Assembly (NCBI GenBank): GCA_000002445.1
Contig: CP000066.1
Location: forward strand, 480,001 to 544,000
Origin: Trypanosoma brucei
Lineage: Eukaryota
DNA length: 64,000 nucleotides
Direction of reading: 5' to 3'
Positions 2,049 through 30,640 of this stretch are shown in pieces (positions within the stretch are counted from its first letter, which is position 1; every line of letters begins with the position of its first letter). Under the pieces are notes generated by a model. The model made no database searches and was not told the DNA's origin. It worked only from the letters and a program-made list of their open reading frames with translations. The position numbers were made by a program, and so were the translations under genes.

Positions 2049-3929
2049 TGCTCTCTCCTTGCCATGTGACTTCCCAATCTTTCCCTTTCTGCAGTTCTTC
2101 AGCAGATTTATTTATTCCTTTCCTTTTCCCCTTTTTGCTGTTGTTATAACCTACTATTCTTTTTTTTTTCTTTTATGACCTTAACCGTACCCTCTCTTCA
2201 CTTCCCCTGGAATTAGTTTTACGTACATATAAACAAACACACACACACACAATATATACATATATGTATATGTGTGGTAAGACGTTCAGTGGCGGAGCAG
2301 AAAGAAAAAACAATAGGGGAAAGAGAGCAGAGGTGAATTTAAAAATATACATGCCAATGTGAGATGTTAATCATTCACAAAGATTCATTAAGTAATAAAA
2401 AAAAAAGAAAAGATACTAAGAACGGAGCAGGAAAAGATTCTCGCGGCAGTAAATGACGCAGAAACTGTAAACACGAGGCGCAACCCGAGTGCAGCACTTC
2501 ATTCAACATCAAAAAAGTAAATAAACAAAGGTAATAAAAAGAAGTGCGTTTATTTGGCAGTGGCTTGCAACAATGCGGAACGAACATGAAAAAAAAAAAA
2601 AGGGGGCGCACATGAACAACAACAGTAATAATAATACCAAAAATAATGATCGTAAAAAGCGGAAGTTTTTCTTTTCGTTTGCACGGCCCTTAACCATTCA
2701 TACCCCTCCAAATTGCGCGCCACCCGTTTGTTCAAAAGAAAAAAAGGAGGTAATGGGAAACGGAGGCGGACAAAAGGGAAATAAACCAACAGCAGCGATT
2801 TATGCCCCACCAAATTTTTCAAAAAAAAAAACATAATTTTTTTTGGCTGAAAAAAAAAACATGAAAACATAATGTGAGCCATGTAAAGACATCCTTACGT
2901 GTGTTTGTGTGGGCATCGATGCGCGGTAGAGATGCCATCAACAAAATATAACAAAAAAAGGAGAAAAAAACAGAAAAGTTAATTTGTTGAATTCCCCTTA
3001 TGTGTTTTATCATTTTCACCACGCAGAGTCAGGTCGCAGTAGCGTTCTTTCCTTGCGTCACGCTTCAAAAACCACCTCCACACACATATTTTATGCCATA
3101 TGCACTCCATACGACTATTATTTTCTTTTTTTTTCCCTCACCCCTCCCTCTTTTCCTACACCATTATATTTTTGCGTGTCACTCCTTCATTCAAAAACCC
3201 CTCCCAAACCCGGTCCTAATCACACTTCCCTAACATCATCTTAACTTATTCAAGTGAGTGTGCTGGTGTGTATTTGTATGTGTGTCTATATAACTTTCAT
3301 CACTTGCTTGAAGCTCATCTACAACTTTGTTTTTGTATGTGTATATAATTGTATAAATACTTCGGGCCCCGTTTCACTTGACACACAGGAATTTTTTTTT
3401 CTTTCATTTGCATCGTGCATTCTCCCTATGCTTAATTGTTGTTCGCAATCCTTCATTTATAATTTTGCTCTTTTTTTCTTTTTTTGAACATTCCGTCAAG
3501 ATTCCAGTCCCACTGTCAAGTTCAAAAACAATCACTCTATATGGTCTCGTGTGATACGGATCCCATTCTCAGCGGAATAACAAACATAAATATATGTATT
3601 TTAAAATATATATATATATATAAAGGAAAAAGGGTGATGTGCTCTATGGGTTCCGGTGAAGAATGAGGAAAACCGCTGCCCACACGCATTTCACTGCATA
3701 AGAGCATGAGCACCAATGATATCTATACAAATATATATGTATATATAGATAGATAGATAAACAGATAAATAGATATAGGAAGATATCTCAGATATAAATG
3801 TATCTTTTATTTATAAACGTGTGCGTGCAGGTATATAGTGAAACTACAGGAAAAAAAAACAAAAAAGGTATCGGGGAAAAATAGAGTACACCGTATCATG
3901 GATTAAATCGTTACCAGTTGTCGGTGTGG

Positions 3930-6245
3930 TTATTTTTTACCCCCGTGCCCTTTTGTGGAACTGTCGCTGCCGGAGTGGTTATTGGCATTAACTGATGAAC
4001 CGCTACCACCAGGCGCACTGCTCCCAGACGAGGCGGAGGAATTTGAAGCTGTTGAGTGCGCACCGGCGTGCTGCGAAGATTGTCCACCGTTTCTTCCACT
4101 GGACGAGCGCTTCTTCAACATGCGCTCCGCCTCACGATCCGCCTTTTGTTTATTCCACGCTTCCTTTTTCTCTCGTAACATTTGCCGCACCCCTCGCCCC
4201 TCCAGCACGCGAGGTGTTGGTGGTGATGGAAAGATAACACTCCGACAGTTGCGGGTGCCACAACTGCATGCAAATGGCGGCATACGTTCGTCACATAACG
4301 TGGCATAATCCACGGTTAACTCCTCACCACTATTAATTGTCCGCTTAGAGACAAGCGTCAGCGTCCGGCCCTGCAAGAAATGCATATTGGGTTCACAAGA
4401 GTGACGAATTGCAACTGCCTGATGAAGGCGATCACCACGTAAAATCACACACCCCACCACTGGATCCTCTTCCCCAAGTTTATATACAGCCTGAGCAATA
4501 ACGGGAACAGTGTGGGCCGCATCACTGAAGAGCGCCTTGCCGGGCCGTACGGTTCGGCTCGCTTTACTCGAAAAATTTCCACGAGAATCGTGACTGATGA
4601 AGTACCATGGCCGCCTTGCCTTCTGCTCACGGACTGCGCGGTTCACTGCATTGTCCACAAAGCGGTCGTGATCCCATGATTTATCGCCCACCACCATCAA
4701 GTCCGCGAAGTCACCGCCATCCTTCTCGCTGTACCACATCCCACAGTTTGGGTTGATTTCCAAAAAGTATACATCACCTTTGGGGTCTATACGAAAGTCA
4801 ACACGGCCATATCCGACCCCGTTCATAATGTGTTGGAAAGCATTCCGGGCCATGTCAATAATCCGTGGGTAGGCCGGGTCATTATGAGGAAGAAAACTGC
4901 ATGCCTCATCGTTGCATTCCATGGACCACTTCTTGTCAAAATAGGCAAAGTCATCTTCATTTTGCAAAAAGTTAAACATTAAAGGCCTGAACACCTTGAC
5001 GCCATGCGGACTCCCGCTGTCGGCACATGCGAGAACGGTGCCCTCACGTCCTCGAATAAACTCCTCCACCAGAGCGTGATTGAACTCTTTCAGAAATGTT
5101 CCAACCTTCACTTTCAACTCGTCCAGAGTGTCACAACGGTTATCCTTGTTAATGCCAACAGAAGCGTAACCGGAAAGATGTTTCACGATGACAGGGAACC
5201 GCAGATGACGACATTTCTTCGCCAAACCTTCCGTTTTATCCAAAAGCACAAAGTTAGGTGTATTCACACCGGCCCCGGCAACAAGCACTTTCATATCAAT
5301 CTTGCTGGGTTCAAAACTGCGCGAGTCTGTGCCCGTAAATGCTGCGTTGTGCTCCTCCAGTGCCTCTAATACGTCGATACCAGCACGCTTCTCATCTTTA
5401 CCACCGTCACAAAGGTTAAAGAAAACGTCGAAGTTGTTTGAGGTTACCAATTCTCGCACCTGACGATAGGCATCATCTTTACGCACAGCAACTTCCGTGA
5501 AGGAGTACCTGTTCTTGTCCTTCCGCACCCTGTGAGCGGGGCTGCAGTGGTAATTGTCCATTTCCGCAGTGACAGAATTGGTCCCTTCGTAGCTGCTGTT
5601 GAGGACACATACGCGCAATTGCTTCTTTACGCTCGCCCTTCTCCTGCCTAGAGTTTGAGATACCACCATCCCAGTCGCCGATTTTGTGCAGTGGGAACCA
5701 TTAGCGGATGAAGAGCCCGTTGACATTGCTGTTGCTGTGTTCGTGGTCGATGCACCGGATCTATTCACCACTGACTTGGAAGAGGAAGCTTTTACTTTCT
5801 TCAGCCCAATCACATCTTCTTTTCCTTTTCTTGCTGACCTTCCCCGATTCGATCCCTGCCCTATTTCCACTGCTGTAGTCATCCCTGAGCTTTTACCTGA
5901 CGCACCACCGCCGTTACTCGTACCTGATGCACTCAACAGGGCTGCACTCTTCGTGCCGGGGTTAATGCCATTACCTCCAGGATGAGCGGATGTACCGACG
6001 GCGGCGGGAGGCACGGCGCCTCCAACTGTCAAACAACTTGAAGTACCACCACTTTTACTGCTCACAGAAGAGGCAGCACCACGGGATGGGAGAATAATAG
6101 TTGTGTTGGATGACTTCCATCGCAGGGTGTGAACAGTCACGCAACTCCACACAGCCACTGTTGGGGTTTTGGGTATTAATACATCTGCAAGGGGACATCG
6201 TAAGACTGAAGCCACACCAAAACGTCGAATTGCTATTCTGTACAT
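3930..6245 (-). CDS. ATP-grasp domain + SET-domain methyltransferase fusion protein (771 aa), with an Arg-rich N-terminal presequence-like segment and a Ser/Gly/Lys-rich C-terminal tail.
   Basis: ATP-grasp motifs: PVIVKHLSGYASVGI, LVEEFIRGREGTV, GYGRVDFRIDPKGDVYFLEINPNCGM. SET C-terminal motifs: RHSCEPN and GEELTVDY, followed by post-SET CSCGTRNC. ATG checked at 6243-6245 (reverse complement). Confidence 0.85.
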   Translation of the reverse strand: MYRIAIRRFGVASVLRCPLADVLIPKTPTVAVWSCVTVHTLRWKSSNTTIILPSRGAASSVSSKSGGTSSCLTVGGAVPPAAVGTSAHPGGNGINPGTKSAALLSASGTSNGGGASGKSSGMTTAVEIGQGSNRGRSARKGKEDVIGLKKVKASSSKSVVNRSGASTTNTATAMSTGSSSANGSHCTKSATGMVVSQTLGRRRASVKKQLRVCVLNSSYEGTNSVTAEMDNYHCSPAHRVRKDKNRYSFTEVAVRKDDAYRQVRELVTSNNFDVFFNLCDGGKDEKRAGIDVLEALEEHNAAFTGTDSRSFEPSKIDMKVLVAGAGVNTPNFVLLDKTEGLAKKCRHLRFPVIVKHLSGYASVGINKDNRCDTLDELKVKVGTFLKEFNHALVEEFIRGREGTVLACADSGSPHGVKVFRPLMFNFLQNEDDFAYFDKKWSMECNDEACSFLPHNDPAYPRIIDMARNAFQHIMNGVGYGRVDFRIDPKGDVYFLEINPNCGMWYSEKDGGDFADLMVVGDKSWDHDRFVDNAVNRAVREQKARRPWYFISHDSRGNFSSKASRTVRPGKALFSDAAHTVPVIAQAVYKLGEEDPVVGCVILRGDRLHQAVAIRHSCEPNMHFLQGRTLTLVSKRTINSGEELTVDYATLCDERMPPFACSCGTRNCRSVIFPSPPTPRVLEGRGVRQMLREKKEAWNKQKADREAERMLKKRSSSGRNGGQSSQHAGAHSTASNSSASSGSSAPGGSGSSVNANNHSGSDSSTKGHGGKK

Positions 6246-7183: not shown

Positions 7184-8053
7184 TCACAAGTCACCGAAGA
7201 AACTCGCGTCCTCTAAAAGTTTTCCAACGCGCACGTGGCCCATGAGAGGCGGTCCATCAGGGTCTTCCAAAGAAGCTCGATCTCCGCGCATCCATGTGAA
7301 TTTGAGCACCCTTGAAAAGTTTCTCCCCTCCCAGTTCTTGTTATCGAAGTTTTGTTCAGCGATGTAAACAAGTGAGGGCTGTCGACGCTCCTTCTTCAGT
7401 TCGCGAAGTGCCGCCTCTCCACCAGCAGCAGATACGTCATCTTCCACCTTCACAACCACGGCAACGTGACCGCGTGGAAAGTATGCCTTATAGTCCGAGT
7501 CCCATACCACAACATCGCCCACGAGCGGCGTGTGCCGCTTGCGCCTCTTCGTTGTCGTGACTTCCACCTTATTTTCGAAGTTAATCCGCTCGTATAGACG
7601 GTGCATCCCGCTTGAACCAAAAAACTTGAGGTTCTCCCAGTACAAATCGTGTCTGCTTCCACCGAAATAGACGAAAATTCCTCGGGTGTGTAAAAGGTAG
7701 CGAGCAACAAACTCATCCGCGGTCCAACACAACCCAGTTGGTGCTCGCTTCCACTCGGACCCATACGGCATTTTCTTCATCACTTCATGTGGATAACCAA
7801 TTGTAGTGTAGGCGTATGTCTCTGACAGCCAGTGGCGGTGGCAGTTGCTCATAGAAGGGACGTCTGAACTATAACCTACAACAGAGTCCATGGGAGCGTT
7901 GCAATGCTCAAGTGGGTTGAAATCCATATGCATCCCATGTCTCTTTGATTTCTGCGTGGATCCCCCACCGAGGAGAACGTAGACGAATAGAAAAAGCAGG
8001 AGAGTAGCCGGCACAGCGAGCTGAAACTTCTGTTTTCGGTTTAGAGACACCAT
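7184..8053 (-). CDS. Membrane-anchored CHAP-domain (glutathionylspermidine-amidase-like) cysteine amidase/peptidase, about 290 aa from the first ATG.
   Basis: N-terminal hydrophobic anchor LAVPATLLLFLFVYVLLGG. Catalytic Cys context GLCWTADEFVARYLLH matches the Gsp-amidase/trypanothione-synthetase amidase pattern C..EF..R.LL. His motif PRGHVAVVV. The ORF track extends to 8278 through a tat-repeat, translated as YYYY. The first ATG (MVSLNRK) was checked at 8051-8053 (reverse complement). Confidence 0.7.
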   Translation of the reverse strand: MVSLNRKQKFQLAVPATLLLFLFVYVLLGGGSTQKSKRHGMHMDFNPLEHCNAPMDSVVGYSSDVPSMSNCHRHWLSETYAYTTIGYPHEVMKKMPYGSEWKRAPTGLCWTADEFVARYLLHTRGIFVYFGGSRHDLYWENLKFFGSSGMHRLYERINFENKVEVTTTKRRKRHTPLVGDVVVWDSDYKAYFPRGHVAVVVKVEDDVSAAGGEAALRELKKERRQPSLVYIAEQNFDNKNWEGRNFSRVLKFTWMRGDRASLEDPDGPPLMGHVRVGKLLEDASFFGDL

Positions 8054-8403
8054 TTGTGGCGTGATTTGTTGATTCGCGTCCTTTACAAAATAATAATAAT
8101 AACAATACCAATGCCAATGCCAATAAGGTTTTATAGCCCTCCCGTGAAAGGATGGAAGAAAGATAGAAAGAAGAGCATTGACAGAAACGTGCCAACAGGA
8201 AAGAACCCGATCATCGGACACACAGAATGTACCGCTGAAGCGATATAGTAGGTAAAAAGTGCGAGACACAAATGGCAAAAAAAATTTTCAAAGTTCGTAT
8301 GATGGGAAAAGGTGTAAAACATGTGAAATCCTCCCCACATTCATCTGATTATTGCGCCGTACATCAGACCAGTAGACTGCCGCCGATTTTCTCCACGCAC
8401 CAA

Positions 8404-10431
8404 TCAGTAGACACAAACACAGTTACATCCCCTGGGGCAACGGTGCACACTCTGGTCATTCCACCACGCCATAATATGCGACATGTGCCCCCCATGACCG
8501 CAGTAAATACAACGCAAAATGAGGCAGCCATTCCTCTTGCTTGAAGGAGGCGGTGTGGCGCCTCCTTCAGCTCCACCACTCCCATGTCCTTGCCCGCCCG
8601 GTAATAGCGAGAGACCACAAATAGCACATGTGTCTGTTGGTAGTAAAGCTGGGCTTAGGTCCTTGTCCTTCGCTCCAACAGTGCCAGGGCCTCCGCTACC
8701 GCTATCACCATACGCATTAATTGGTGAACTCCTGCTGGCCATGTGTAGTTGTTGATTTAGGGTAGCATTACAATAGGCGGTCTCAATAGCGCTCATGACA
8801 AGTTCTACCTCACGGAACTTTACAGGCTGATCCATGATAAAGAATACATGAGAAACAACAGACACACAGCGATAGCACTCTACCGGATGAATCAGATGCT
8901 TTGCAATGTCTGGAAACGCCGGTTCCTCACTTAATATGGAGGGAAGTACAACACAACAGACGACTACACCCGCCCAAAAGGGTTGCCGCTGTGCCTGCAT
9001 CGTCTCCACGGATTGAGCAAGAGCTGGTATGAGGAGTTTTCGAGCACAGAGCAGAGGTGTCTGCACTACCAGCGCTCCCTTCACGATATGGGACAACGTG
9101 CGAAACGTCAGCGATACCCCGCGAAGCGCTTTGGCGTTACGTGTTATATGAGCGTTCTTGCATAAGGCGGAATGGGGTTTATCGTCATACAGGCACACAT
9201 CATTCATCGTATATTTTTTCGTATGCAGTATATTTTCCGGTGCTAATAGTGAAGGAAGTAGCATCCTCCTTTCTTTACTTACCCCCTTTGGCACCACAGA
9301 TAGGTCAAGTGCAGAATTAGTCAAAAAAATCCGCCCCTGGACCGATTGGCTATCGGGTCCGTGCGAAAAAACACCAGCCACACCTGTCAAACCAATCGTG
9401 TTTCCATCGATACCGTCCCCACATTCTGTATTACCACACCCGCGGTTGAAAAGCGGTGAAGACGACGAAAAGCCACCTGAAGACGTCGCATCGGGATGTG
9501 GTCTTCCCTTTGCAAGAGATGCAGATGCAGAGCGATCATCAATTCCTTTTGCTTCCGATCGGTCTGAGCGTCCCCATGAAAGGATTCCGCCGTTCGGCAT
9601 GAATGCGGCGGCAAACTGACGCTTCGGCCTCAGAACCATATTACTCCCCATGAAGTCTTCAAAATGCCCAACAAAATCATCCCGCAGTGACCAACCATTA
9701 CTTTCCTCGTATAATGCCGTCGTGCTTCCCGAGTGCACGCAGTCACGCTCAAGCACTAAGCAACTCTCGTCCAGTTCCAAGGCCCCCCACCAAGTGCAGA
9801 GAAAAGAGAAACCAGACAGAAACAATGACCCAGTCGCCTGCTCAACACCACGTCCCACTGCCCCAGCGTCCATGGATACCTCTGTCGACGAACCCGAGGC
9901 ATCCACAGGCCTCAGTGATGTGAGTCGCGAGCAGCCATACCGCAATTTGCCGTAGTAGTCCGCAGCGTTCTCAACAGTATCATTGCAACCCCCATTGTGT
10001 GACAGTTTTGGCGCAGTGAGTTTCGATATAGCTTCCTCTAAGACAAACGACTGCAACCCACAGCATCTGTTGGCACCACCCCCGCTATCATGCTCGCTGC
10101 CTTGTACGCAACCGTCCTTGGCGTAGCGCCAGCTGCAGGGAGCCGCCGGATACGAAGGTGGGAAAACAGCGACCCACTCCGCTACAACCATGAACCCTGA
10201 AACAGAATTCTTGGGTTCTACAGCCCCTTGGAATTCGCGCTGAAGCCGCACAACCACCATACAAGTCCCGTCTACTTCTGAAACCGGGTCGCACACTATT
10301 ACGGTAGGCGCTCCTCTCCCCGACGGCAGTTTCGCTGGCGTGGCCTGAATACCTACGCACGGTGCGAAGTAAACGCTAGCACGTTTTCTTGCCTCCTCAA
10401 CCTCCGGCGATACAACAACTAAAGGTCCCAT
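8404..10431 (-). CDS. Protein of 675 aa with a C-terminal GATOR2/SEA-complex-type RING/zinc-binding domain (WDR24/WDR59/MIOS-like).
   Basis: C-terminus reads CAICGLSLL...CLILRCIYCGHGGHMSHIMAWWNDQSVHRCPRGCNCVCVY. It matches the C-x2-C ... C-x2-C-GHGGH-x2-H-x3-W ... CP-x-GC-x-C arrangement characteristic of Sea2/3/4, WDR24, WDR59 and MIOS. The rest of the protein is Gly/Ser-rich with no other obvious domain. ATG checked at 10429-10431 (reverse complement). Confidence 0.7.
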   Translation of the reverse strand: MGPLVVVSPEVEEARKRASVYFAPCVGIQATPAKLPSGRGAPTVIVCDPVSEVDGTCMVVVRLQREFQGAVEPKNSVSGFMVVAEWVAVFPPSYPAAPCSWRYAKDGCVQGSEHDSGGGANRCCGLQSFVLEEAISKLTAPKLSHNGGCNDTVENAADYYGKLRYGCSRLTSLRPVDASGSSTEVSMDAGAVGRGVEQATGSLFLSGFSFLCTWWGALELDESCLVLERDCVHSGSTTALYEESNGWSLRDDFVGHFEDFMGSNMVLRPKRQFAAAFMPNGGILSWGRSDRSEAKGIDDRSASASLAKGRPHPDATSSGGFSSSSPLFNRGCGNTECGDGIDGNTIGLTGVAGVFSHGPDSQSVQGRIFLTNSALDLSVVPKGVSKERRMLLPSLLAPENILHTKKYTMNDVCLYDDKPHSALCKNAHITRNAKALRGVSLTFRTLSHIVKGALVVQTPLLCARKLLIPALAQSVETMQAQRQPFWAGVVVCCVVLPSILSEEPAFPDIAKHLIHPVECYRCVSVVSHVFFIMDQPVKFREVELVMSAIETAYCNATLNQQLHMASRSSPINAYGDSGSGGPGTVGAKDKDLSPALLPTDTCAICGLSLLPGGQGHGSGGAEGGATPPPSSKRNGCLILRCIYCGHGGHMSHIMAWWNDQSVHRCPRGCNCVCVY

Positions 10432-10952: not shown

Positions 10953-11807
10953 CTAGAATTCTTCCATTTGTGGCTCAGGACCATATGACAGTTTCTCTCC
11001 AAACACAGATTTTAGGCGCCACTCGTCTCGCACCTGGTCATCAACCTTTGGTTCCACGAACTTCCGGAAAAACCAGGCACGGCGAACGGACACTTGCTTC
11101 CAGTAGTTGTGCAGTCGTGCTTGCGCTTTGCAGTAAAACTTCACAACTGACTCCTCCAACACCTGAGCCATCGCGGGACCGGCGGAAGAATAATACATCT
11201 CTTCTGCCTCCAGAGCCGTAACAGGTTGCCCCTCCCGCTTGCGACGCGTGACCTCCCGCTCAACACCGGAGTACAACTCCTCCCGGAACTCGGCGGGAGG
11301 CTTAAATTCCAAATCCGTCCAATGACCCCCACTAAAGCCTTTAACCTGAGGGTAGCGGACAAGATTCCTGGTAAGTTGGGGTGTGGCATCCTTACTCACT
11401 TCGTAGAACTTAAGATTCGGATAGCGGTCAGCGCTCTGGTGGCAAAGAAATTCAAACGTTTTGTCGAGTGCATTACACGCTGTGCAGTTCTCCTGATGAT
11501 ACCGCACAACCATAACGTCATCCGAGTGAGAAAAGTAGTGCAACTTCTCCCGCATCTCCTCTACCGAATGAATTGGCTTCACACACCTGGTTGGAAATTT
11601 CATCCAAATTGGATTCACTGGCAACTCGTTGTTTGCGCCCAAACCGCTACGGATACCTGCGCTGTTCATCATCAGTGCCTTCATTTTGTGCGAAGCCGAT
11701 TGGTAAAGCTCGAGCTTCTCCCGCCGTCGCTTGATCCCAGCAACGACTTCAGACCGGCCGCCCGGTACCTCCGGCTCGCTCCATTCTTCTTTTCGGGTTT
11801 CGGCCAT
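10953..11807 (-). CDS. Thioredoxin-fold protein with a CTAC (CxxC) motif (284 aa).
   Basis: VVVRYHQENCTACNALDKTFEFLCH ... YPNLKFYEV follows the thioredoxin pattern (W)CxxC-K-x-l-x-P-x-fe-x-la ... yp-x-vkF. It carries a basic/acidic C-terminal extension. ATG checked at 11805-11807 (reverse complement). Confidence 0.7.
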   Translation of the reverse strand: MAETRKEEWSEPEVPGGRSEVVAGIKRRREKLELYQSASHKMKALMMNSAGIRSGLGANNELPVNPIWMKFPTRCVKPIHSVEEMREKLHYFSHSDDVMVVRYHQENCTACNALDKTFEFLCHQSADRYPNLKFYEVSKDATPQLTRNLVRYPQVKGFSGGHWTDLEFKPPAEFREELYSGVEREVTRRKREGQPVTALEAEEMYYSSAGPAMAQVLEESVVKFYCKAQARLHNYWKQVSVRRAWFFRKFVEPKVDDQVRDEWRLKSVFGEKLSYGPEPQMEEF

Positions 11808-20959: not shown

Positions 20960-22735
20960 CTACTGACGCTGCTGGCGTAACGAATTCCCCCACCCCTCAT
21001 GTCCCACACACATGGGTGATGGGGGCGCCAAGTTCGTCACACCGACACCATTGTAATAAGAATAGTGATGATGATTAGGTGACGAGTGTGGAGTGGCGCG
21101 GTGCCCTCCGTAAGGCGAGTGGTAGCCACCTGCGTAAACGTTATTCCAGCAGTGGTTTGTGTTGTCCATATATGTCCCACACCCATTTCCAGGGGCACTG
21201 CATCCACTTGTAGAGTTGTAAGAGTAACCAACGCTGCGTTGAGCTCCATGTTGTATTGGTGATCCCTGACGAGAAGAATCGGCCCAATGTGGTGAGTAAA
21301 TGGTAGGCTGAGCAAGCACAGACAGGAACGGGGGCATGTGACTGCTGTTGGAATGAGTACTGCCGTAATATGGCGTGTGTGGTGTATTTGGAATGGAACA
21401 AGTACCACCACCGCCACCGCAAACATTTGAAGAGCATACATTGGGCATACCCATACTGGGCCCGTGAGGTCCACCGACTGCAGAAAGACCGCCCACTGCA
21501 TATGGTCCCGGGCGCTGGTGCGAAGCGGAAGGCATAGACACCGATACATCCCGTCGCTGATTGCGGGTGACAACAGGAGTACATGCGACAGTGCCCGCCA
21601 TCGTGCCAACCACACCGTGCGCTGTTGTTGGTGTAAAGGACAGAAATCCACACGATTGCTCATCAGCAGCGTTCTGCACCCGCTCCAAACCAAGACGCCC
21701 CAGCGTTGGAATGCCAATTCGTGTGTACTGTGGAGCTAAGTTATCTGCGTCATAATCATCCCAGAGGTGCAACTGCCGCCGCCACACGTTGAGATACCTA
21801 TCGAATGTGCGTTTACTGCAATCATACTCGGGACGTGGTGTCATGGGATGCATTGGATTGCGGAACTCACGATCACAACGGGATGGCACGGCTCTGATGT
21901 AGTTTTCGTAACCCGCCGTTTCTTTGCCGTATTGTACCTGCCTTAGACGCTGCTGAAGACGACGTGCCCGCTCCGTAGTGTCACCACGGTTAAGGTCAGC
22001 GGGATCCAATTCCACGCCACTATAATTTAAGTGCTTCTCCTCCGCTTCTACCATGCGGAGAGCAATGGGGCACTGCAGTGGTTCCGAAGCGTTGTAAACA
22101 CCAGGACCCGCACAGTCGGCATCGTTACCCAAATGAACAATGGTCGCCATACGTTTGTTGCCATTGTTGTTTAAGACACGAGTAGAAACAATGTGTGATG
22201 AACCATTAGTGGTTCCACCACCAGCGACAGCCGTATCGTGTGGTGTTGCAGAATGTGTAACATCCCCGCCGCACATGTCCCCCGCGTGTCCAATGTCACC
22301 TCCGTCCAGCACTGCAATGGGTGAGCGCTGCGAAGAGCACTGGGAAGGAATATACCCACACCGGGCCATCGAATCAGGTGTGCGGGATACCACAGATTTA
22401 TATACCGATGTCACGGGAACGGCAGTTTCCGCAGGGTTGCGTGTGTACCTCTCCAGTTCTGATTCCACACCAAATACAGACGGTGGAATGCTACGATACG
22501 GCTGGTGGACCGTCACCATGGGAGATCGAAGCTGCTGCGACATTGTCGCCGCAACCGATGTTGTCGAAGAGGCACCGTTGCGAATAGGCGTTTGTGAGGT
22601 TGAAATGTCAATCTTTGGGGATCCGGTTCCCAGAGAAGTATCGAACTTCGGATGATTGGCGCCGCTGTAGCTGTTGTTCATCCACACACCGCTTGAGCCC
22701 AACGCCCGCCTAGTGCTGCTCTCAGTCATGGACAT
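20960..22735 (-). CDS. SLBP-like: SLBP-type (histone mRNA stem-loop-binding protein family) RNA-binding protein (591 aa), otherwise low-complexity (Ser/Gly/His/Tyr-rich).
   Basis: Central segment LRQVQYGKETAGYENYIRAVPSRCDREFRNPMHPMTPRPEYDCSKRTFDRYLNVWRRQLHLWDD matches the SLBP RNA-binding-domain signature Q.QYGK.T..Y..Y...VP ... HP.TP ... SKR..D.....WRR.LH.WD. ATG checked at 22733-22735 (reverse complement). Confidence 0.75.
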   Translation of the reverse strand: MSMTESSTRRALGSSGVWMNNSYSGANHPKFDTSLGTGSPKIDISTSQTPIRNGASSTTSVAATMSQQLRSPMVTVHQPYRSIPPSVFGVESELERYTRNPAETAVPVTSVYKSVVSRTPDSMARCGYIPSQCSSQRSPIAVLDGGDIGHAGDMCGGDVTHSATPHDTAVAGGGTTNGSSHIVSTRVLNNNGNKRMATIVHLGNDADCAGPGVYNASEPLQCPIALRMVEAEEKHLNYSGVELDPADLNRGDTTERARRLQQRLRQVQYGKETAGYENYIRAVPSRCDREFRNPMHPMTPRPEYDCSKRTFDRYLNVWRRQLHLWDDYDADNLAPQYTRIGIPTLGRLGLERVQNAADEQSCGFLSFTPTTAHGVVGTMAGTVACTPVVTRNQRRDVSVSMPSASHQRPGPYAVGGLSAVGGPHGPSMGMPNVCSSNVCGGGGGTCSIPNTPHTPYYGSTHSNSSHMPPFLSVLAQPTIYSPHWADSSRQGSPIQHGAQRSVGYSYNSTSGCSAPGNGCGTYMDNTNHCWNNVYAGGYHSPYGGHRATPHSSPNHHHYSYYNGVGVTNLAPPSPMCVGHEGWGNSLRQQRQ

Positions 22736-25713: not shown

Positions 25714-27528
25714 TCAACGCAGCTCATTCTCGAGGTATTTGTAATCAAAAACGAAGTCTTCTTTTTCTTCCAAATTCCAGCCTTCCTCAAAGTTGAAGAA
25801 CTGAAACGACCCGCGCTCGCTCCCCTCCAGAGATTCTTTTGGGGGACCATTTCGCTTAAACCAAGTGTTGAGTTGAGTGTGGTAACGGAAGGAACGCTCC
25901 TTAATTTGTCCCGCGGCACAATACTGCTGATACGTGTTCTGGTGATAGTAAAAGATAAAGAAAAGGGTCTCAAGCTCAAATGTCCGGTAAATCTCCGGAG
26001 AAGCTAACGCTGGGAGAACCTGCTGTGGAAAAAAAGGAACGTGCACTGTTGGATTGGAGGGCTCAAATGGACGTTGCCGGTCAACGTCCTGCGTATGTGG
26101 CAAGTTTGCTAAGGACATGTCAATAAGCTGCAGCATGGTGTTCCTGTCCAAAAAATCATCGTGTGCTGTTGAAACCGGTGCGGGGGAAACATGGGAAGCG
26201 GGTGCAGCGCTGAGTTGCCTCGTTTCTCCAGTAGCGGCGGTGTTGGCACTGCTGGGAGACATGGAAGCCATCCCGGATGCCTGAGATGGAGCCGCTGCCG
26301 CAGGTTGCTCAAGGTTTGACTTCTTACTTGTAGTGGAAGGTGGCGACACGAGACTTGCAGGTCGGCCCTTCTCCCAATCACCCAGCCGTGAACCGGTGCT
26401 CGTTGCCCTCGCCATATCTGCTAAAGAACCGGTCCCAACCATGGCCATCGCATCGTCGCCGAAGGTGTCGTCGTTCATTTTGTCCATGTCGTCTTCCGGA
26501 AAATCTGCGTTTTCGTCCCAGTTGTCGTGCAACCCGTCCCTGCCACCTACCGTCGATGTTATTGAGGTGTTTCCCTTGTGTGGGCTCGGGCTTCCGGAAC
26601 CCAACCGCTTCGCCCCATCCATTCTGTTTGCCGTTGCGGAACCGGGGCCTTTCCTGGCATCAGAGGAAGTGGGACCGCTCATCTTCGCACTGGAAGAAGG
26701 TGTATTGGATTTTGTCCCTCCCATTCTCACCGGACTCAGTTTGTTATTTGGGTTGCGGGAATTAGGAGAAGCCGCATCCTCATCCTCCCCAACCGTGCTA
26801 CCACCCCGTCGCCTCTCTGAAACTAACTGCTCGTCGAAACCAAATTGGGCGTACAGGTCTTCATCTTCATTGTTGTCATCATCGTCGCTGCCGTTGGTAT
26901 CACCACGTTTGATTGCCTCTACACGCTCTTTGATTCCGTAAACACTTTCGGGGTTTACATCTCCGTTTGCGATACCTTTGAGGAGCAACTCAAGGCGTGC
27001 TACGTGAAATTTAAGTTTTTGCGTACGGGTCGAAGTGGTTGCAGACACAGAATTCTTATTACGTCCGTGGTTTCCACGCCCACTGCGTTCCGCATCCGAC
27101 TCGGAGAGCTGCACTTGCTTCCGCAAACTATCTGTTGTGTTCTTGAGCCATGCCTCCACATCCTTTACTCCTTCCTGCTGCGCCTCGCTCAAGGCACCAG
27201 TGCCTAACCCATCTTTCCCAGATCCCTTCGTTTTCATCGCCTGCTCACACATCTTAAACGTTTCGATCCTCTCGTGAAGTTTTTGCATCCACGGCTCAAC
27301 GCTCCCTTTCGAGTCCTTGGAGTCCGAAGGTGGGCAAGTGGCCTTTATTAAGTCATAGCTGCGTTGAAGCTTCCTAGCCTCCCTTCTGAGTTCGGCCTCT
27401 AGTTTCTCCCTCTGGGGTGACGTACTGTTGTTGAACTTCGTGTAAACACTATCGTAGCTGTTAATTTCCTCCTGTGTACGGCGAAGGAGCCGCTCGATCT
27501 CCTGTTGACTCTTTTTATTATTTGTCAT
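25714..27528 (-). CDS. NOT5: CCR4-NOT complex subunit NOT5 (NOT3/5 family) (604 aa).
   Basis: N-terminal Not3-type coiled coil: MTNNKKSQQEIERLLRRTQEEINSYDSVYTKF...LEAELRREARKLQRSYDLIKA. C-terminal NOT box: TFELETLFFIFYYHQNTYQQYCAAGQIKERSFRYHTQLNTWFKRNG ... FQFFNFEEGWNLEEKEDFVFDYKYLE. ATG checked at 27526-27528 (reverse complement). Confidence 0.9.
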   Translation of the reverse strand: MTNNKKSQQEIERLLRRTQEEINSYDSVYTKFNNSTSPQREKLEAELRREARKLQRSYDLIKATCPPSDSKDSKGSVEPWMQKLHERIETFKMCEQAMKTKGSGKDGLGTGALSEAQQEGVKDVEAWLKNTTDSLRKQVQLSESDAERSGRGNHGRNKNSVSATTSTRTQKLKFHVARLELLLKGIANGDVNPESVYGIKERVEAIKRGDTNGSDDDDNNEDEDLYAQFGFDEQLVSERRRGGSTVGEDEDAASPNSRNPNNKLSPVRMGGTKSNTPSSSAKMSGPTSSDARKGPGSATANRMDGAKRLGSGSPSPHKGNTSITSTVGGRDGLHDNWDENADFPEDDMDKMNDDTFGDDAMAMVGTGSLADMARATSTGSRLGDWEKGRPASLVSPPSTTSKKSNLEQPAAAAPSQASGMASMSPSSANTAATGETRQLSAAPASHVSPAPVSTAHDDFLDRNTMLQLIDMSLANLPHTQDVDRQRPFEPSNPTVHVPFFPQQVLPALASPEIYRTFELETLFFIFYYHQNTYQQYCAAGQIKERSFRYHTQLNTWFKRNGPPKESLEGSERGSFQFFNFEEGWNLEEKEDFVFDYKYLENELR

Positions 27529-28341: not shown

Positions 28342-29781
28342 TCACGCCCATGTCTTAATGGCACCATCCCACGCTGAGGTGACAACGCGGGAAGCCTCAA
28401 CTGGGTGCCAGCGATGCGACACAAGAGTTTGAGTGTGGGCTGAAAAAGATCGTAGTAGCTCACCAGTAGCCCACGACCAGATAAACAACTTACCATTGAT
28501 GTCACCACTCGACAAATAGCGGCCATCAGGACTAAATGCCAGTTGACAACGCGTGCCTGAAATTGTGTGGCCGCTAAATACACGATGACGAAGTAACTTC
28601 ACTTGTCCTCCACCACCATCAGAGAATACAAGTGCTTGATTGTTGAGCGATTGGGCAACAAGCATGTCTTCTGTGGGGTGCCGCACGACATGAGTGATGG
28701 CATGCATAGAGACATCCGCAATCTGTTTGATTTGAACTGGAACCCTAAAGTCCCACGTGCGGAGCGTCTTGTCCTCCGCTGTCGTTAAAAGTTTCTTCCC
28801 TCCACTAAGCAGCGAGAGATTAAAAATGGTCCCCATATGGCCCGTGTACTCGCGTTGGTACTTCTGGTAACTCACCCGCACGTCATAAAGGACCACTTTC
28901 CTGTCCAGTGCTACAAGTATTAAGGAAGTTGGATCTAGAGGATGATGCAGGTGCTGCACGCAGGGAAGCCGCTCCGAATTCGTCAGCACGCCTCGGCACT
29001 CACCATGTTCAACGTCCCACATCGCTACCGTCCCATCAACAGAACCTGTGGACATTGTTTCCCCATCCGGAGTCACCTCTAGGGATTTCACTGGTTGTGA
29101 ATGGGCTACAAATGAAGCAATGCACTGACGGCGGGAAGAGAAGGTCTCGTAAAGCCTCACCTCACCCTTTAAATCAGCGGCAAACAACAAATGACCAACG
29201 GGAGGTAGCCACTGAAGCTGTTGAATGCCCGCCGCATGCTTGTCGCAACTGCCTTTCATTTGTCGTGGGAGACGGCACTCATGCGAGCGCGGTTGCAGCG
29301 ATGGGGGAGGCTCCAAGAAAGACCTGCCCAAGTAATTGGTGCGCTCAAATGATGGATCAAAATTAGCTTGAAGTGTATTTGCCGCTACAGAGGTGGAGAC
29401 GTTAGTATTCACCTCTGTAGCACCAGCAGCAGAAATAACCGCAGGTGTGGCTGAATCGGAGACCCCCACCTGCGCGGGTCCTTCACCACTTCGTACCCGC
29501 TTGCGCGCCACTGGCTGAGTGGTTCGCTTCTCAGGTAATCCGCCGCCATCAGTTTTTTTCACATAAGCCTCCTCAAACCCCTCCGGCGGAGGCAAATATG
29601 CCCGTTTCACATCCTCCGGGGTGGCTAAAAAACGCAGCGGAAGTCCGGCGTGCAGATCTGCGCTCGCGTCTTGCCTCCGTTGTTCAGAACTATCCTCGGA
29701 AACGGGCAACGTATATCCCTTCTCTCGAGCCACACGCTGCAGGACTTTGGGATCAATATGCGGTGCAAGGTCAAAAAGCAT
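28342..29781 (-). CDS. PRP17: Pre-mRNA splicing factor PRP17/CDC40 (WD40 repeat protein), 480 aa from the first ATG.
   Basis: C-terminus GHTISGTRCQLAFSPDGRYLSSGDINGKLFIWSWATGELLRSFSAHTQTLVSHRWHPVEASRVVTSAWDGAIKTWA aligns with human PRP17 ...GH.[30 protein letters not shown]...[31 protein letters not shown]. Upstream, SLNNQALVF matches SLDNQILIF. The ORF-track start at 29913 is a TTG. The first ATG (MLFDLAPH) was checked at 29779-29781 (reverse complement). Confidence 0.85.
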   Translation of the reverse strand: MLFDLAPHIDPKVLQRVAREKGYTLPVSEDSSEQRRQDASADLHAGLPLRFLATPEDVKRAYLPPPEGFEEAYVKKTDGGGLPEKRTTQPVARKRVRSGEGPAQVGVSDSATPAVISAAGATEVNTNVSTSVAANTLQANFDPSFERTNYLGRSFLEPPPSLQPRSHECRLPRQMKGSCDKHAAGIQQLQWLPPVGHLLFAADLKGEVRLYETFSSRRQCIASFVAHSQPVKSLEVTPDGETMSTGSVDGTVAMWDVEHGECRGVLTNSERLPCVQHLHHPLDPTSLILVALDRKVVLYDVRVSYQKYQREYTGHMGTIFNLSLLSGGKKLLTTAEDKTLRTWDFRVPVQIKQIADVSMHAITHVVRHPTEDMLVAQSLNNQALVFSDGGGGQVKLLRHRVFSGHTISGTRCQLAFSPDGRYLSSGDINGKLFIWSWATGELLRSFSAHTQTLVSHRWHPVEASRVVTSAWDGAIKTWA

Positions 29782-30640
29782 CGCTTCACCGCAGGTACAC
29801 GTAGGACGGGTTAAACAAGGGAGAAACAAAAGAACAAAAGCAACAGTTATAGCAATTACAATAAAAGAGTAATGGAAGAGGAGGCCGGAGTGATAGCGGC
29901 ATATTTGAACCAAACGATGAACGGTAGAAATTAGTCGTAGACAAGGACAAACACAAACATTGAGTGCGCCCCGTTATGGTCGTACCGACGCCACACAAAA
30001 GTTCGTGCACGGGTTAAAATGATAAAGTGAAACTAGACAAACAAAGGACGAACAAATAACTAGAAAGAAAAACGTACGCAACGATACTTCTAACAACAGG
30101 TATGCTTTACGCGTGCTTTCGATGCCGCTCCACACGCCGCCCAAGCACATGAAGATATGAGGGAACTCTCACACTCCTTTGCGACGCGCCGCTGCAGCCG
30201 CTTTCCAAGTTGACTTCCCTCTCCTCCGCACTGCGCTCATCAGTTGTTACCACACCGGTAAAAATGATAAGATGCTTCTACAGATGGACTGGAAACGAAC
30301 TGGTGAGTTTCATTCATGTGGTATGTAACAATTTAAGTTCCTGCAACGCAGGAAAAACGCACAAGTTTCTGTACATCGACGCATGGCGAATAAATAATGT
30401 GATGTTATCCCGACCGTCGGAAAAGATAAGGTTGAGGCAACCACAGTGGGTTGTAGGGACGGCATTGTTTGTTGGACTATATGCACGAACCTACGCGCTC
30501 AACAAGAAAGGACGTGGTTTACCGCGGCTACAATATCCCATTCTCTTTCTAGTTTTGATCATGAACCATTTCACCTTTTCCACACCTTTTTACTATTACT
30601 TCTTTTTTTGTTTTTTTTCTTTTTATTCCACCACCTTCCA

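Follow-up and report, generated by a model that had tools for sequence, protein, structure and literature searches.

Among the closest known counterparts of the trypanosome gene considered here are two RING-bearing subunits, Sea3 (Mtc5) of the yeast SEA complex (SEAC) and WDR59 of human GATOR2. In yeast Sea3 (PDB 8adl chain C; 1148 residues) an N-terminal beta-propeller is followed in order by an N-loop, an RWD domain, a flexible connector, a domain-invasion motif (DIM) that inserts into Sec13, an alpha-solenoid and a RING, and in the domain description published for SEAC an RWD is named for Sea3 only (PMC9646525). The propeller and N-loop contact Sea1-Npr2 and Npr2-Npr3, and the propeller, placed at the junction of Sea1 with Npr2, lends stability to SEACIT (PMC9646525). 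Human WDR59 (PDB 7uhy chain D; 974 residues) also has an N-terminal WD40 propeller ahead of its RWD. In a stretch of 64,000 nucleotides of Trypanosoma brucei DNA (contig CP000066.1, positions 480,001 to 544,000; hereafter the window), a complete open reading frame at 8404-10431 on the minus strand (675 codons, with the stop codon at 8404-8406) encodes a protein that, unlike these relatives, has neither a propeller nor an N-loop. By exact look-up this protein is T. b. brucei TREU927 XP_843782.1 (UniProt Q57ZC3), encoded on a chromosome of 1.65 Mb and annotated 'hypothetical protein, conserved'. Overall the best explanation, and one that we consider likely, is that it represents a reduced orthologue of Sea3/WDR59, which is one of three scaffold subunits with a RING in the SEACAT/GATOR2 half of the SEA/GATOR complex; this reduced form starts at the RWD and has no N-terminal propeller.

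The occurrence of this family in kinetoplastids and its link to TOR are not new. Candidates for Sea2, Sea3 and Sea4 in T. brucei were catalogued earlier (Faktorova et al. 2023, PMC10264103), and the best BLAST matches of WDR59, WDR24 and MIOS in Leishmania have been listed as well (PMC7901767). What is added here is a domain-level assignment together with the propeller-less architecture, the latter unmentioned in the papers examined as far as their available text extends; the text of Faktorova et al. 2023, in its available part, mentions neither a missing propeller nor an RWD. The gain is incremental, given that the presence of the family was published before. Nevertheless a 'conserved hypothetical' gene acquires a likely Sea3/WDR59-type identity and a map (RWD, connector, candidate DIM, solenoid and RING), along with predicted partners in Sec13.2, a Sea4/MIOS-type RING and an Npr3-like protein.

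The C-terminal RING domain

The last 75 residues (601-675; 8407-8631, minus strand) correspond to a zinc-binding RING of the GATOR2/SEACAT type, as judged from profile searches, Pfam and conservation. The ligands are laid out as C602-x2-C605 ... C641-x2-C644-G-H646-G-G-H649-x2-H652-x3-W656 ... C665-P-x-G-C669-x-C671-x-C673-x-Y675, the two halves of the domain being separated by a variable glycine-rich loop; the C-terminus reads TCAICGLS...GCLILRCIYCGHGGHMSHIMAWWNDQSVHRCPRGCNCVCVY, the end of the protein is ...TCAICGLSLLPGGQGHGSGGAEGGATPPPSSKRNGCLILRCIYCGHGGHMSHIMAWWNDQSVHRCPRGCNCVCVY, and the CGHGGH motif occupies 8485-8502 (minus strand). HMMER, run exhaustively against 1.84 billion representative proteins, returned 31 homologues at E<=1e-3, the named ones coming from T. 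congolense, T. grayi, T. vivax, Phytomonas and Lotmaria (Leishmaniinae) and all annotated as hypothetical. In an alignment of 13 full-length homologues (Trypanosoma spp., Phytomonas and sequences from assemblies and metagenomes), C602, C605, C641, C644, H646, G647, G648, H649, C665, G668, C669, C671 and C673 are invariant. With Lotmaria and further long homologues added, the set comprised 24 RING cores, in all of which the CxxC-HGGH core (CxHGGH) and the C-terminal cysteines (C...C-x-C-x-C) are invariant. Between TREU927 and T. b. gambiense the RING is without a single amino acid difference, whereas 23 are found elsewhere in the protein.

Searches of the PDB place this domain with the GATOR2 subunits. 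With the T. brucei sequence alone (phmmer) the top matches were all GATOR2 RINGs (WDR59, E=2e-4). The 13-sequence family profile matched WDR59 (2.8e-8), MIOS (3.6e-6), Sea4 (3e-5) and Sea2 (3.8e-4), and the 24-sequence RING-core profile matched WDR59 (1.6e-10), WDR24 (6.2e-8), Sea2/Rtc1 (1.8e-6), MIOS (1.5e-4) and Sea4 (3e-3). Significant matches of the family, C-terminal and RING-core profiles were to SEACAT/GATOR2 proteins only; with the RING-core profile the first unrelated RING appeared at E=0.07, and generic RING E3 ligases (E>=0.07) fell behind every GATOR2/SEA protein but yeast Sea3 (E=0.21). Pfam zinc_ribbon_16 is matched by 11 of the 13 family members (best 7e-9) and zf-RING_16 by 10 (best 6e-9). 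The T. brucei sequence itself scores 19.6 and 13.8 bits, respectively, under gathering thresholds of about 27 bits, and this is probably the reason for its 'hypothetical' annotation. By these sequence statistics the RING match is beyond chance, and membership of the GATOR2/SEACAT RING family is very likely. The original prediction, made from the letters of the window alone, had named a GATOR2/SEA-type RING with CGHGGH at this C-terminus, and the profile and Pfam searches bear it out: the C-terminus falls significantly into no other family, and the motif is invariant in the orthologues.

Domain architecture and the absent propeller

Structure prediction with AlphaFold2 (AF2) on the 13-sequence alignment gave a model with a mean predicted local distance difference test score (pLDDT) of 57.9, a value that averages well-folded blocks and the disorder between them. 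At the N-terminus, residues 1-140 together with the helix 203-217 are modelled as an alpha-beta4-alpha-alpha domain. The RWD/UBC-like domain predicted for residues 1-221 (9769-10431, minus strand) comprises a helix at 3-21, strands at 43-46, 57-68, 79-90 and 100-104, and helices at 128-139 and 203-217, with a disordered Gly/Ser-rich insert at about 140-202. Structural matches of this domain are the RWD domains of listerin (score 6.9), human GCN2 (6.4) and RNF25 (6.3), followed by RWDD1 (6.1), the RWD of yeast GCN2 (6.1) and that of Mtc5/Sea3 (8adl_C; 5.2, over 94 residues with 16% identity). The segment FPPSYPAAPCSW (10129-10164, minus strand) carries an FPxxYPxxP pattern that resembles the RWD signature, and HMMER aligned it, at a non-significant level, with the counterpart of this motif in the RWD of WDR59 (residues 426-456). 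In the PDB no match was found with a profile built from the first 225 residues, and the Pfam scan of the family likewise returned no RWD. The RWD fold is thus called from the predicted structure, because sequence profiles alone miss the domain.

The RWD is followed by a Gly/Ser-rich connector (residues 222-397; 9241-9768, minus strand), predicted to be disordered from its composition, low conservation and pLDDT below 50. By its position it may be equivalent to the flexible 'Sea3 connector' that lies between the SEACIT- and SEACAT-binding halves of yeast Sea3 (PMC9646525). Two short elements within it are kept even in the most distant homologues, both with pLDDT below 50 in the monomer. The first is a beta-hairpin, VLRPKRQFAAAFMPNGGILSWGRSD (residues 266-290; 9562-9636, minus strand; family consensus RPxRxFAAxFLPxGxVxxW), which resembles a single WD40 blade and has its strands at 273-277 and 283-288 in the AF2 model. 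The second is a short strand, (V/L)LPSLL(V/A), at residues ~388-397 (9241-9270, minus strand), directly before the helical domain. Judged by position against the DIM of Sea3, the hairpin is a candidate DIM that would complete an open Sec13 propeller, and the second strand may be part of it. If the hairpin is a DIM, low AF2 confidence is to be expected, because it would fold only against its partner.

Residues 398-566 (8734-9240, minus strand) form an alpha-solenoid-type helical domain (pLDDT 79-92) that sits immediately N-terminal of the RING, as in the SEACAT/GATOR2 scaffold subunits, with a Gly/Ser/Pro-rich linker, delimited by pLDDT and composition, at residues 567-600 (8632-8733, minus strand). 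The best-conserved motif outside the RING, PFWAGVxxCCxxLP (484-497), is contained in the very hydrophobic PFWAGVVVCCVVLPSIL (residues 481-497; 8941-8991, minus strand). This segment was considered as a transmembrane segment and ruled out, being a confidently modelled helix of the helical domain; it possibly forms a surface that faces Sea2 or Sec13. The original description of the 600 residues outside the RING as Gly/Ser-rich is accurate for about 141-202, 222-397 and 567-600, all predicted to be disordered, and mistaken for the RWD domain (1-221) and the helical domain (398-566).

The absence of the propeller is real, both in the T. brucei protein and in every homologue examined. None of the 19 family members scanned with Pfam, the T. 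brucei sequence included, has a WD40 match, and the longest homologues (885-2006 residues) are also without WD40, their added length seeming to be mostly low-complexity. In the AF2 model the RWD fold begins at residue 1, and the aligned orthologues share a start at the same first helix. The reading frame is maximal, its start being the first ATG that follows an in-frame stop, and the 520 nt upstream are ordinary intergenic sequence that includes a polypyrimidine tract. On a metagenomic contig (L001) that carries a homologue of 25% identity (P0037), the upstream gene ends 112 bp before the start codon; this upstream gene is the orthologue of the 284-aa gene found upstream in the window (52% identity), a synteny that supports positional orthology. 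A split gene with its propeller encoded nearby is ruled out, since the sole WD40 gene of the window is PRP17, and the 284-aa neighbour is ruled out as a separate propeller by its lack of any significant PDB or Pfam match. The suspicion that the protein lacks an obvious beta-propeller and is divergent in architecture was thus correct.

Sea3/WDR59 and the alternative assignments

Several lines of structural evidence point to Sea3/WDR59 among the possible paralogues. From the RWD onward the order of elements in the trypanosome protein is the same as in Sea3, and this layout of RWD, connector, solenoid and RING is conserved across kinetoplastids. The top whole-protein match in Foldseek is Mtc5/Sea3 (8adl_C; E=5.8e-5, probability 1.0, 655 aligned columns). 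When the model of the helical domain and RING was compared with 48,164 PDB chains, Sea3/Mtc5 (8adl_C; score 14.1) ranked first and WDR59 (7uhy_D; 11.1) second, with Sea2 (8adl_A) at 8.9, WDR24 (7uhy_C) at 6.9 (rank 42), and neither MIOS nor Sea4 among the top 60 matches. The WDR59 match is independent of the RWD, because 7uhy_D models only the C-terminal solenoid and RING. Among the human paralogues the RING-core profile also scores WDR59 best (43.8 bits, against 35.6 for WDR24 and 24.7 for MIOS). Thus the earlier proposal of a Sea2/3/4-type homologue holds at the level of the family and can be refined, by the RWD and by the structural match of helical domain and RING, to a Sea3/WDR59-like protein; we regard orthology with Sea3/WDR59 as quite probable. 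A comparable case is found in the same lineage and family. Euglenozoan 'Sea3' candidates, such as Paradiplonema papillatum DIPPA_06252, which was pulled down with PpSec13b, are reported as not assignable by BLAST among Sea2, Sea3 and Sea4 and as lying outside the canonical clades (PMC10264103), much as the trypanosome protein behaves; these candidates may include the present protein.

A number of observations weigh against this assignment. Sequence comparison alone leaves the paralogues unseparated: in the C-terminal profile yeast Sea2 is the top PDB match (38.6 bits, 1.2e-8, 174 aa), slightly above WDR59, and the RING of yeast Sea3 has the worst score of all with the RING-core profile. In the SEAC study the RING structures of Sea2 and Sea4 are described as closer to each other than to that of Sea3 (PMC9646525). 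Yeast Sea3 and the trypanosome protein share an overall identity of only ~10% and have very divergent RINGs, and similarity of sequence to human WDR59 is detectable only in ~33 RING residues. The propeller typical of SEACAT/GATOR2 RING subunits is absent, and AF2 gives the candidate DIM only low confidence. According to Faktorova et al. 2023, BLAST could not tell euglenozoan Sea2, Sea3 and Sea4 apart, and kinetoplastid Sea2/Sea3 fell outside the canonical clades of the published phylogeny (PMC10264103); the ambiguity of sequence-based orthology calls for kinetoplastid Sea2/Sea3 can be attributed to the missing propeller. We infer complex membership, the Sec13 partner and any TOR phenotype, and T. 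brucei Sec13.2 has been localised to endoplasmic reticulum (ER) exit sites with no endolysosomal signal (PMC11858755).

The strongest alternative is that the gene is an orthologue of Sea2/WDR24 or Sea4/MIOS, whose RING and solenoid are homologous to those seen here, and that its propeller was lost while an RWD-like N-terminus was independently gained or is only apparent. The rank of yeast Sea2 in the C-terminal profile would fit this explanation, as would the alignments of MIOS (5.7e-7) and Sea4 (4e-7) in the same profile, which in the family and C-terminal profiles extend over 85-115 aa and include the first CxxC where WDR59 aligns over only ~33 aa. The T. brucei sequence also scores slightly higher on zinc_ribbon_16 than on zf-RING_16. 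Such an orthologue would nevertheless have to account for an N-terminus that is predicted to be an RWD and matches the Sea3 RWD, the only one named in the SEAC description, and for a RING core whose score with WDR59 exceeds that with WDR24 by 8 bits and that with MIOS by 19 bits. On balance this explanation is unlikely.

A Leishmania gene bears on the same question. The Leishmania orthologue may be LdCL_250018400, if synteny between T. brucei chromosome 3 and Leishmania chromosome 25 extends to this gene. This gene has been reported as the best match of human MIOS, not of WDR59, through an 82-aa RING alignment (PMC7901767), which would argue for a Sea4/MIOS identity, and against Sea3/WDR59, if the two genes are orthologous. 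If this synteny holds, the present data would change the MIOS label of the Leishmania gene to Sea3/WDR59.

Considerably less probable is a lineage-specific ubiquitin ligase that combines RWD and RING in the manner of RNF25 or listerin, with an ancestral RING type shared with GATOR2 proteins and a function outside SEA/GATOR. The propeller, which mediates the SEACIT contacts in yeast, is indeed absent, and NPRL2 and NPRL3 were not found in Leishmania by BLAST (PMC7901767). However, the RING is specifically of GATOR2 type, with generic RING-H2 ligases at E>=0.07, the helical domain and RING match Sea3 and WDR59 in a Sea3-like domain order, and in each of two surveys three proteins with a RING of SEACAT/GATOR2 type are given for trypanosomatids, of which the present protein is plausibly one. 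Finally, the Gly/Ser-rich and poorly conserved composition of much of the protein, the 23 differences between two T. brucei subspecies and the Pfam scores under threshold might suggest that the Cys/His pattern arose by chance and that the protein is merely fast-evolving, of low complexity and without conserved function. This explanation is refuted by the invariant ligands, the WDR59 profile match at E 1.6e-10, the RING without substitutions between subspecies, the confidently predicted folded domains and the conserved synteny.

Predicted role, locus and neighbouring genes

Assuming that the protein is the Sea3/WDR59 orthologue, and taking the structures of SEAC in yeast and GATOR2 in humans as a guide, we propose a bridging role that has about an even chance of being correct. 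The RING would bind zinc and heterodimerise with the RING of the Sea4/MIOS orthologue, a structural role that does not amount to proven E3 ligase activity. The conserved hairpin would give a blade to Sec13, probably to the euglenozoan-specific paralogue Sec13.2/Sec13b, while the solenoid would pack on the Sea2/WDR24 orthologue. The RWD, held on its flexible connector, would contact the GTPase-activating protein (GAP) module GATOR1/SEACIT, as it does with the C-lobe of Npr3 in yeast and here presumably with an Npr3-like subunit. The protein might thereby connect the regulatory cage with the GAP that acts on the Rag GTPases, upstream of TORC1. Diplonemid Sec13b is described as pulling down SEA/GATOR subunits (PMC10264103).

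The published inventory of trypanosomatid TOR regulators makes such a route plausible. In Trypanosoma Rag GTPases and GATOR1 are present and RHEB/TSC absent (PMC5745459), and in Leishmania RagA/RagC occur together with three GATOR2-like RING proteins (PMC7901767). Trypanosomatids have been reported to lack Ragulator and the known mammalian amino-acid sensors (PMC5745459, PMC7901767), and the mammalian partners Sestrin, CASTOR and KICSTOR were mostly not found (PMC7901767). A SEA/GATOR-Rag route into TORC1 is plausible because RagA/RagC and GATOR1 are reported and RHEB/TSC and Ragulator are absent. The route by which nutrients act on the trypanosomatid TOR kinases matters for differentiation, for quiescence and for virulence.

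Because the propeller has been lost, a weaker or rewired SEACAT-SEACIT interface is predicted in kinetoplastids. The missing propeller amounts to a natural deletion of the part of yeast Sea3 that stabilises SEACIT, and it offers a test of what share of the contact between SEACAT and SEACIT can be dispensed with. A more speculative proposal, which we put forward only tentatively, is that the propeller-less Sea3 couples the cage to the Rag GAP only through the RWD on its ~180-aa disordered tether, or not at all, and supplies a rewired, lineage-specific input to the unusual four-TOR system, perhaps by way of Sec13.2/Sec16 at ER exit sites and not at the lysosome.

The gene is probably Tb927.3.1880, as obtained by counting backward from Tb927.3.1910/1920. 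The open reading frame at 20960-22735 (minus strand), with an SLBP-type histone RNA-binding domain, matches the published Tb927.3.1910; that at 25714-27528 (minus strand), a NOT3/5 (NOT5) protein, matches the published Tb927.3.1920; and that at 28342-29913 (minus strand) is PRP17 (best PDB match 9if7_SO, E=2e-143). From these three genes the window can be assigned to chromosome 3 of T. brucei, in plus orientation. A literature search with Q57ZC3 and the identifiers of neighbouring genes returned no paper that treats the gene in its main text and no experiment on the protein. Compared with T. b. gambiense DAL972 and one T. b. equiperdum strain, the TREU927 allele differs at the same 22-23 amino acid positions (3.4%), and compared with T. 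equiperdum OVI at 1, a distribution of alleles that indicates two deep haplotypes within T. brucei. The RING contains none of these differences.

A plus-strand reading of 8404-10431 meets only stops, which places the gene on the minus strand. All convincing open reading frames of the window lie on that strand, as expected for a kinetoplastid polycistron, and across 1-64000 each 2-kb segment has a negative GC skew; both observations are consistent with one long polycistronic unit with no strand-switch region within the window.

The 284-aa upstream gene (10953-11807, minus strand) has no Pfam match and contains a CTAC motif; its PDB matches, some of them thioredoxin-fold proteins, are non-significant (E 0.2-0.9). 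Its counterpart on L001, a distant kinetoplastid-like contig, lies at 684-1538. With 52% identity between the two, this gene is much better conserved than its Sea3-like neighbour (25%). Directly downstream of the Sea3-like homologue, at 3283-4341 of the same contig, a TAP42 domain protein is encoded. TAP42 is a regulator of PP2A and an effector of TORC1 in yeast, and the adjacency of two TOR-pathway genes on this contig may be a coincidence.

The downstream neighbour in T. brucei (7184-8278, minus strand) is not TAP42; it encodes a CHAP (amidase/peptidase) domain together with a hydrophobic N-terminal segment. As listed, this reading frame starts with TTG, and translation probably begins at an ATG further inside. 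Its place among the genes suggests that it could be Tb927.3.1870, for which a putative membrane protein is given in PMC2504296. Further along, an open reading frame of 771 aa (3930-6245, minus strand) is an unusual fusion of an ATP-grasp/D-Ala-D-Ala-ligase-like domain (321-503) with a methyltransferase domain of the SET type (612-647).

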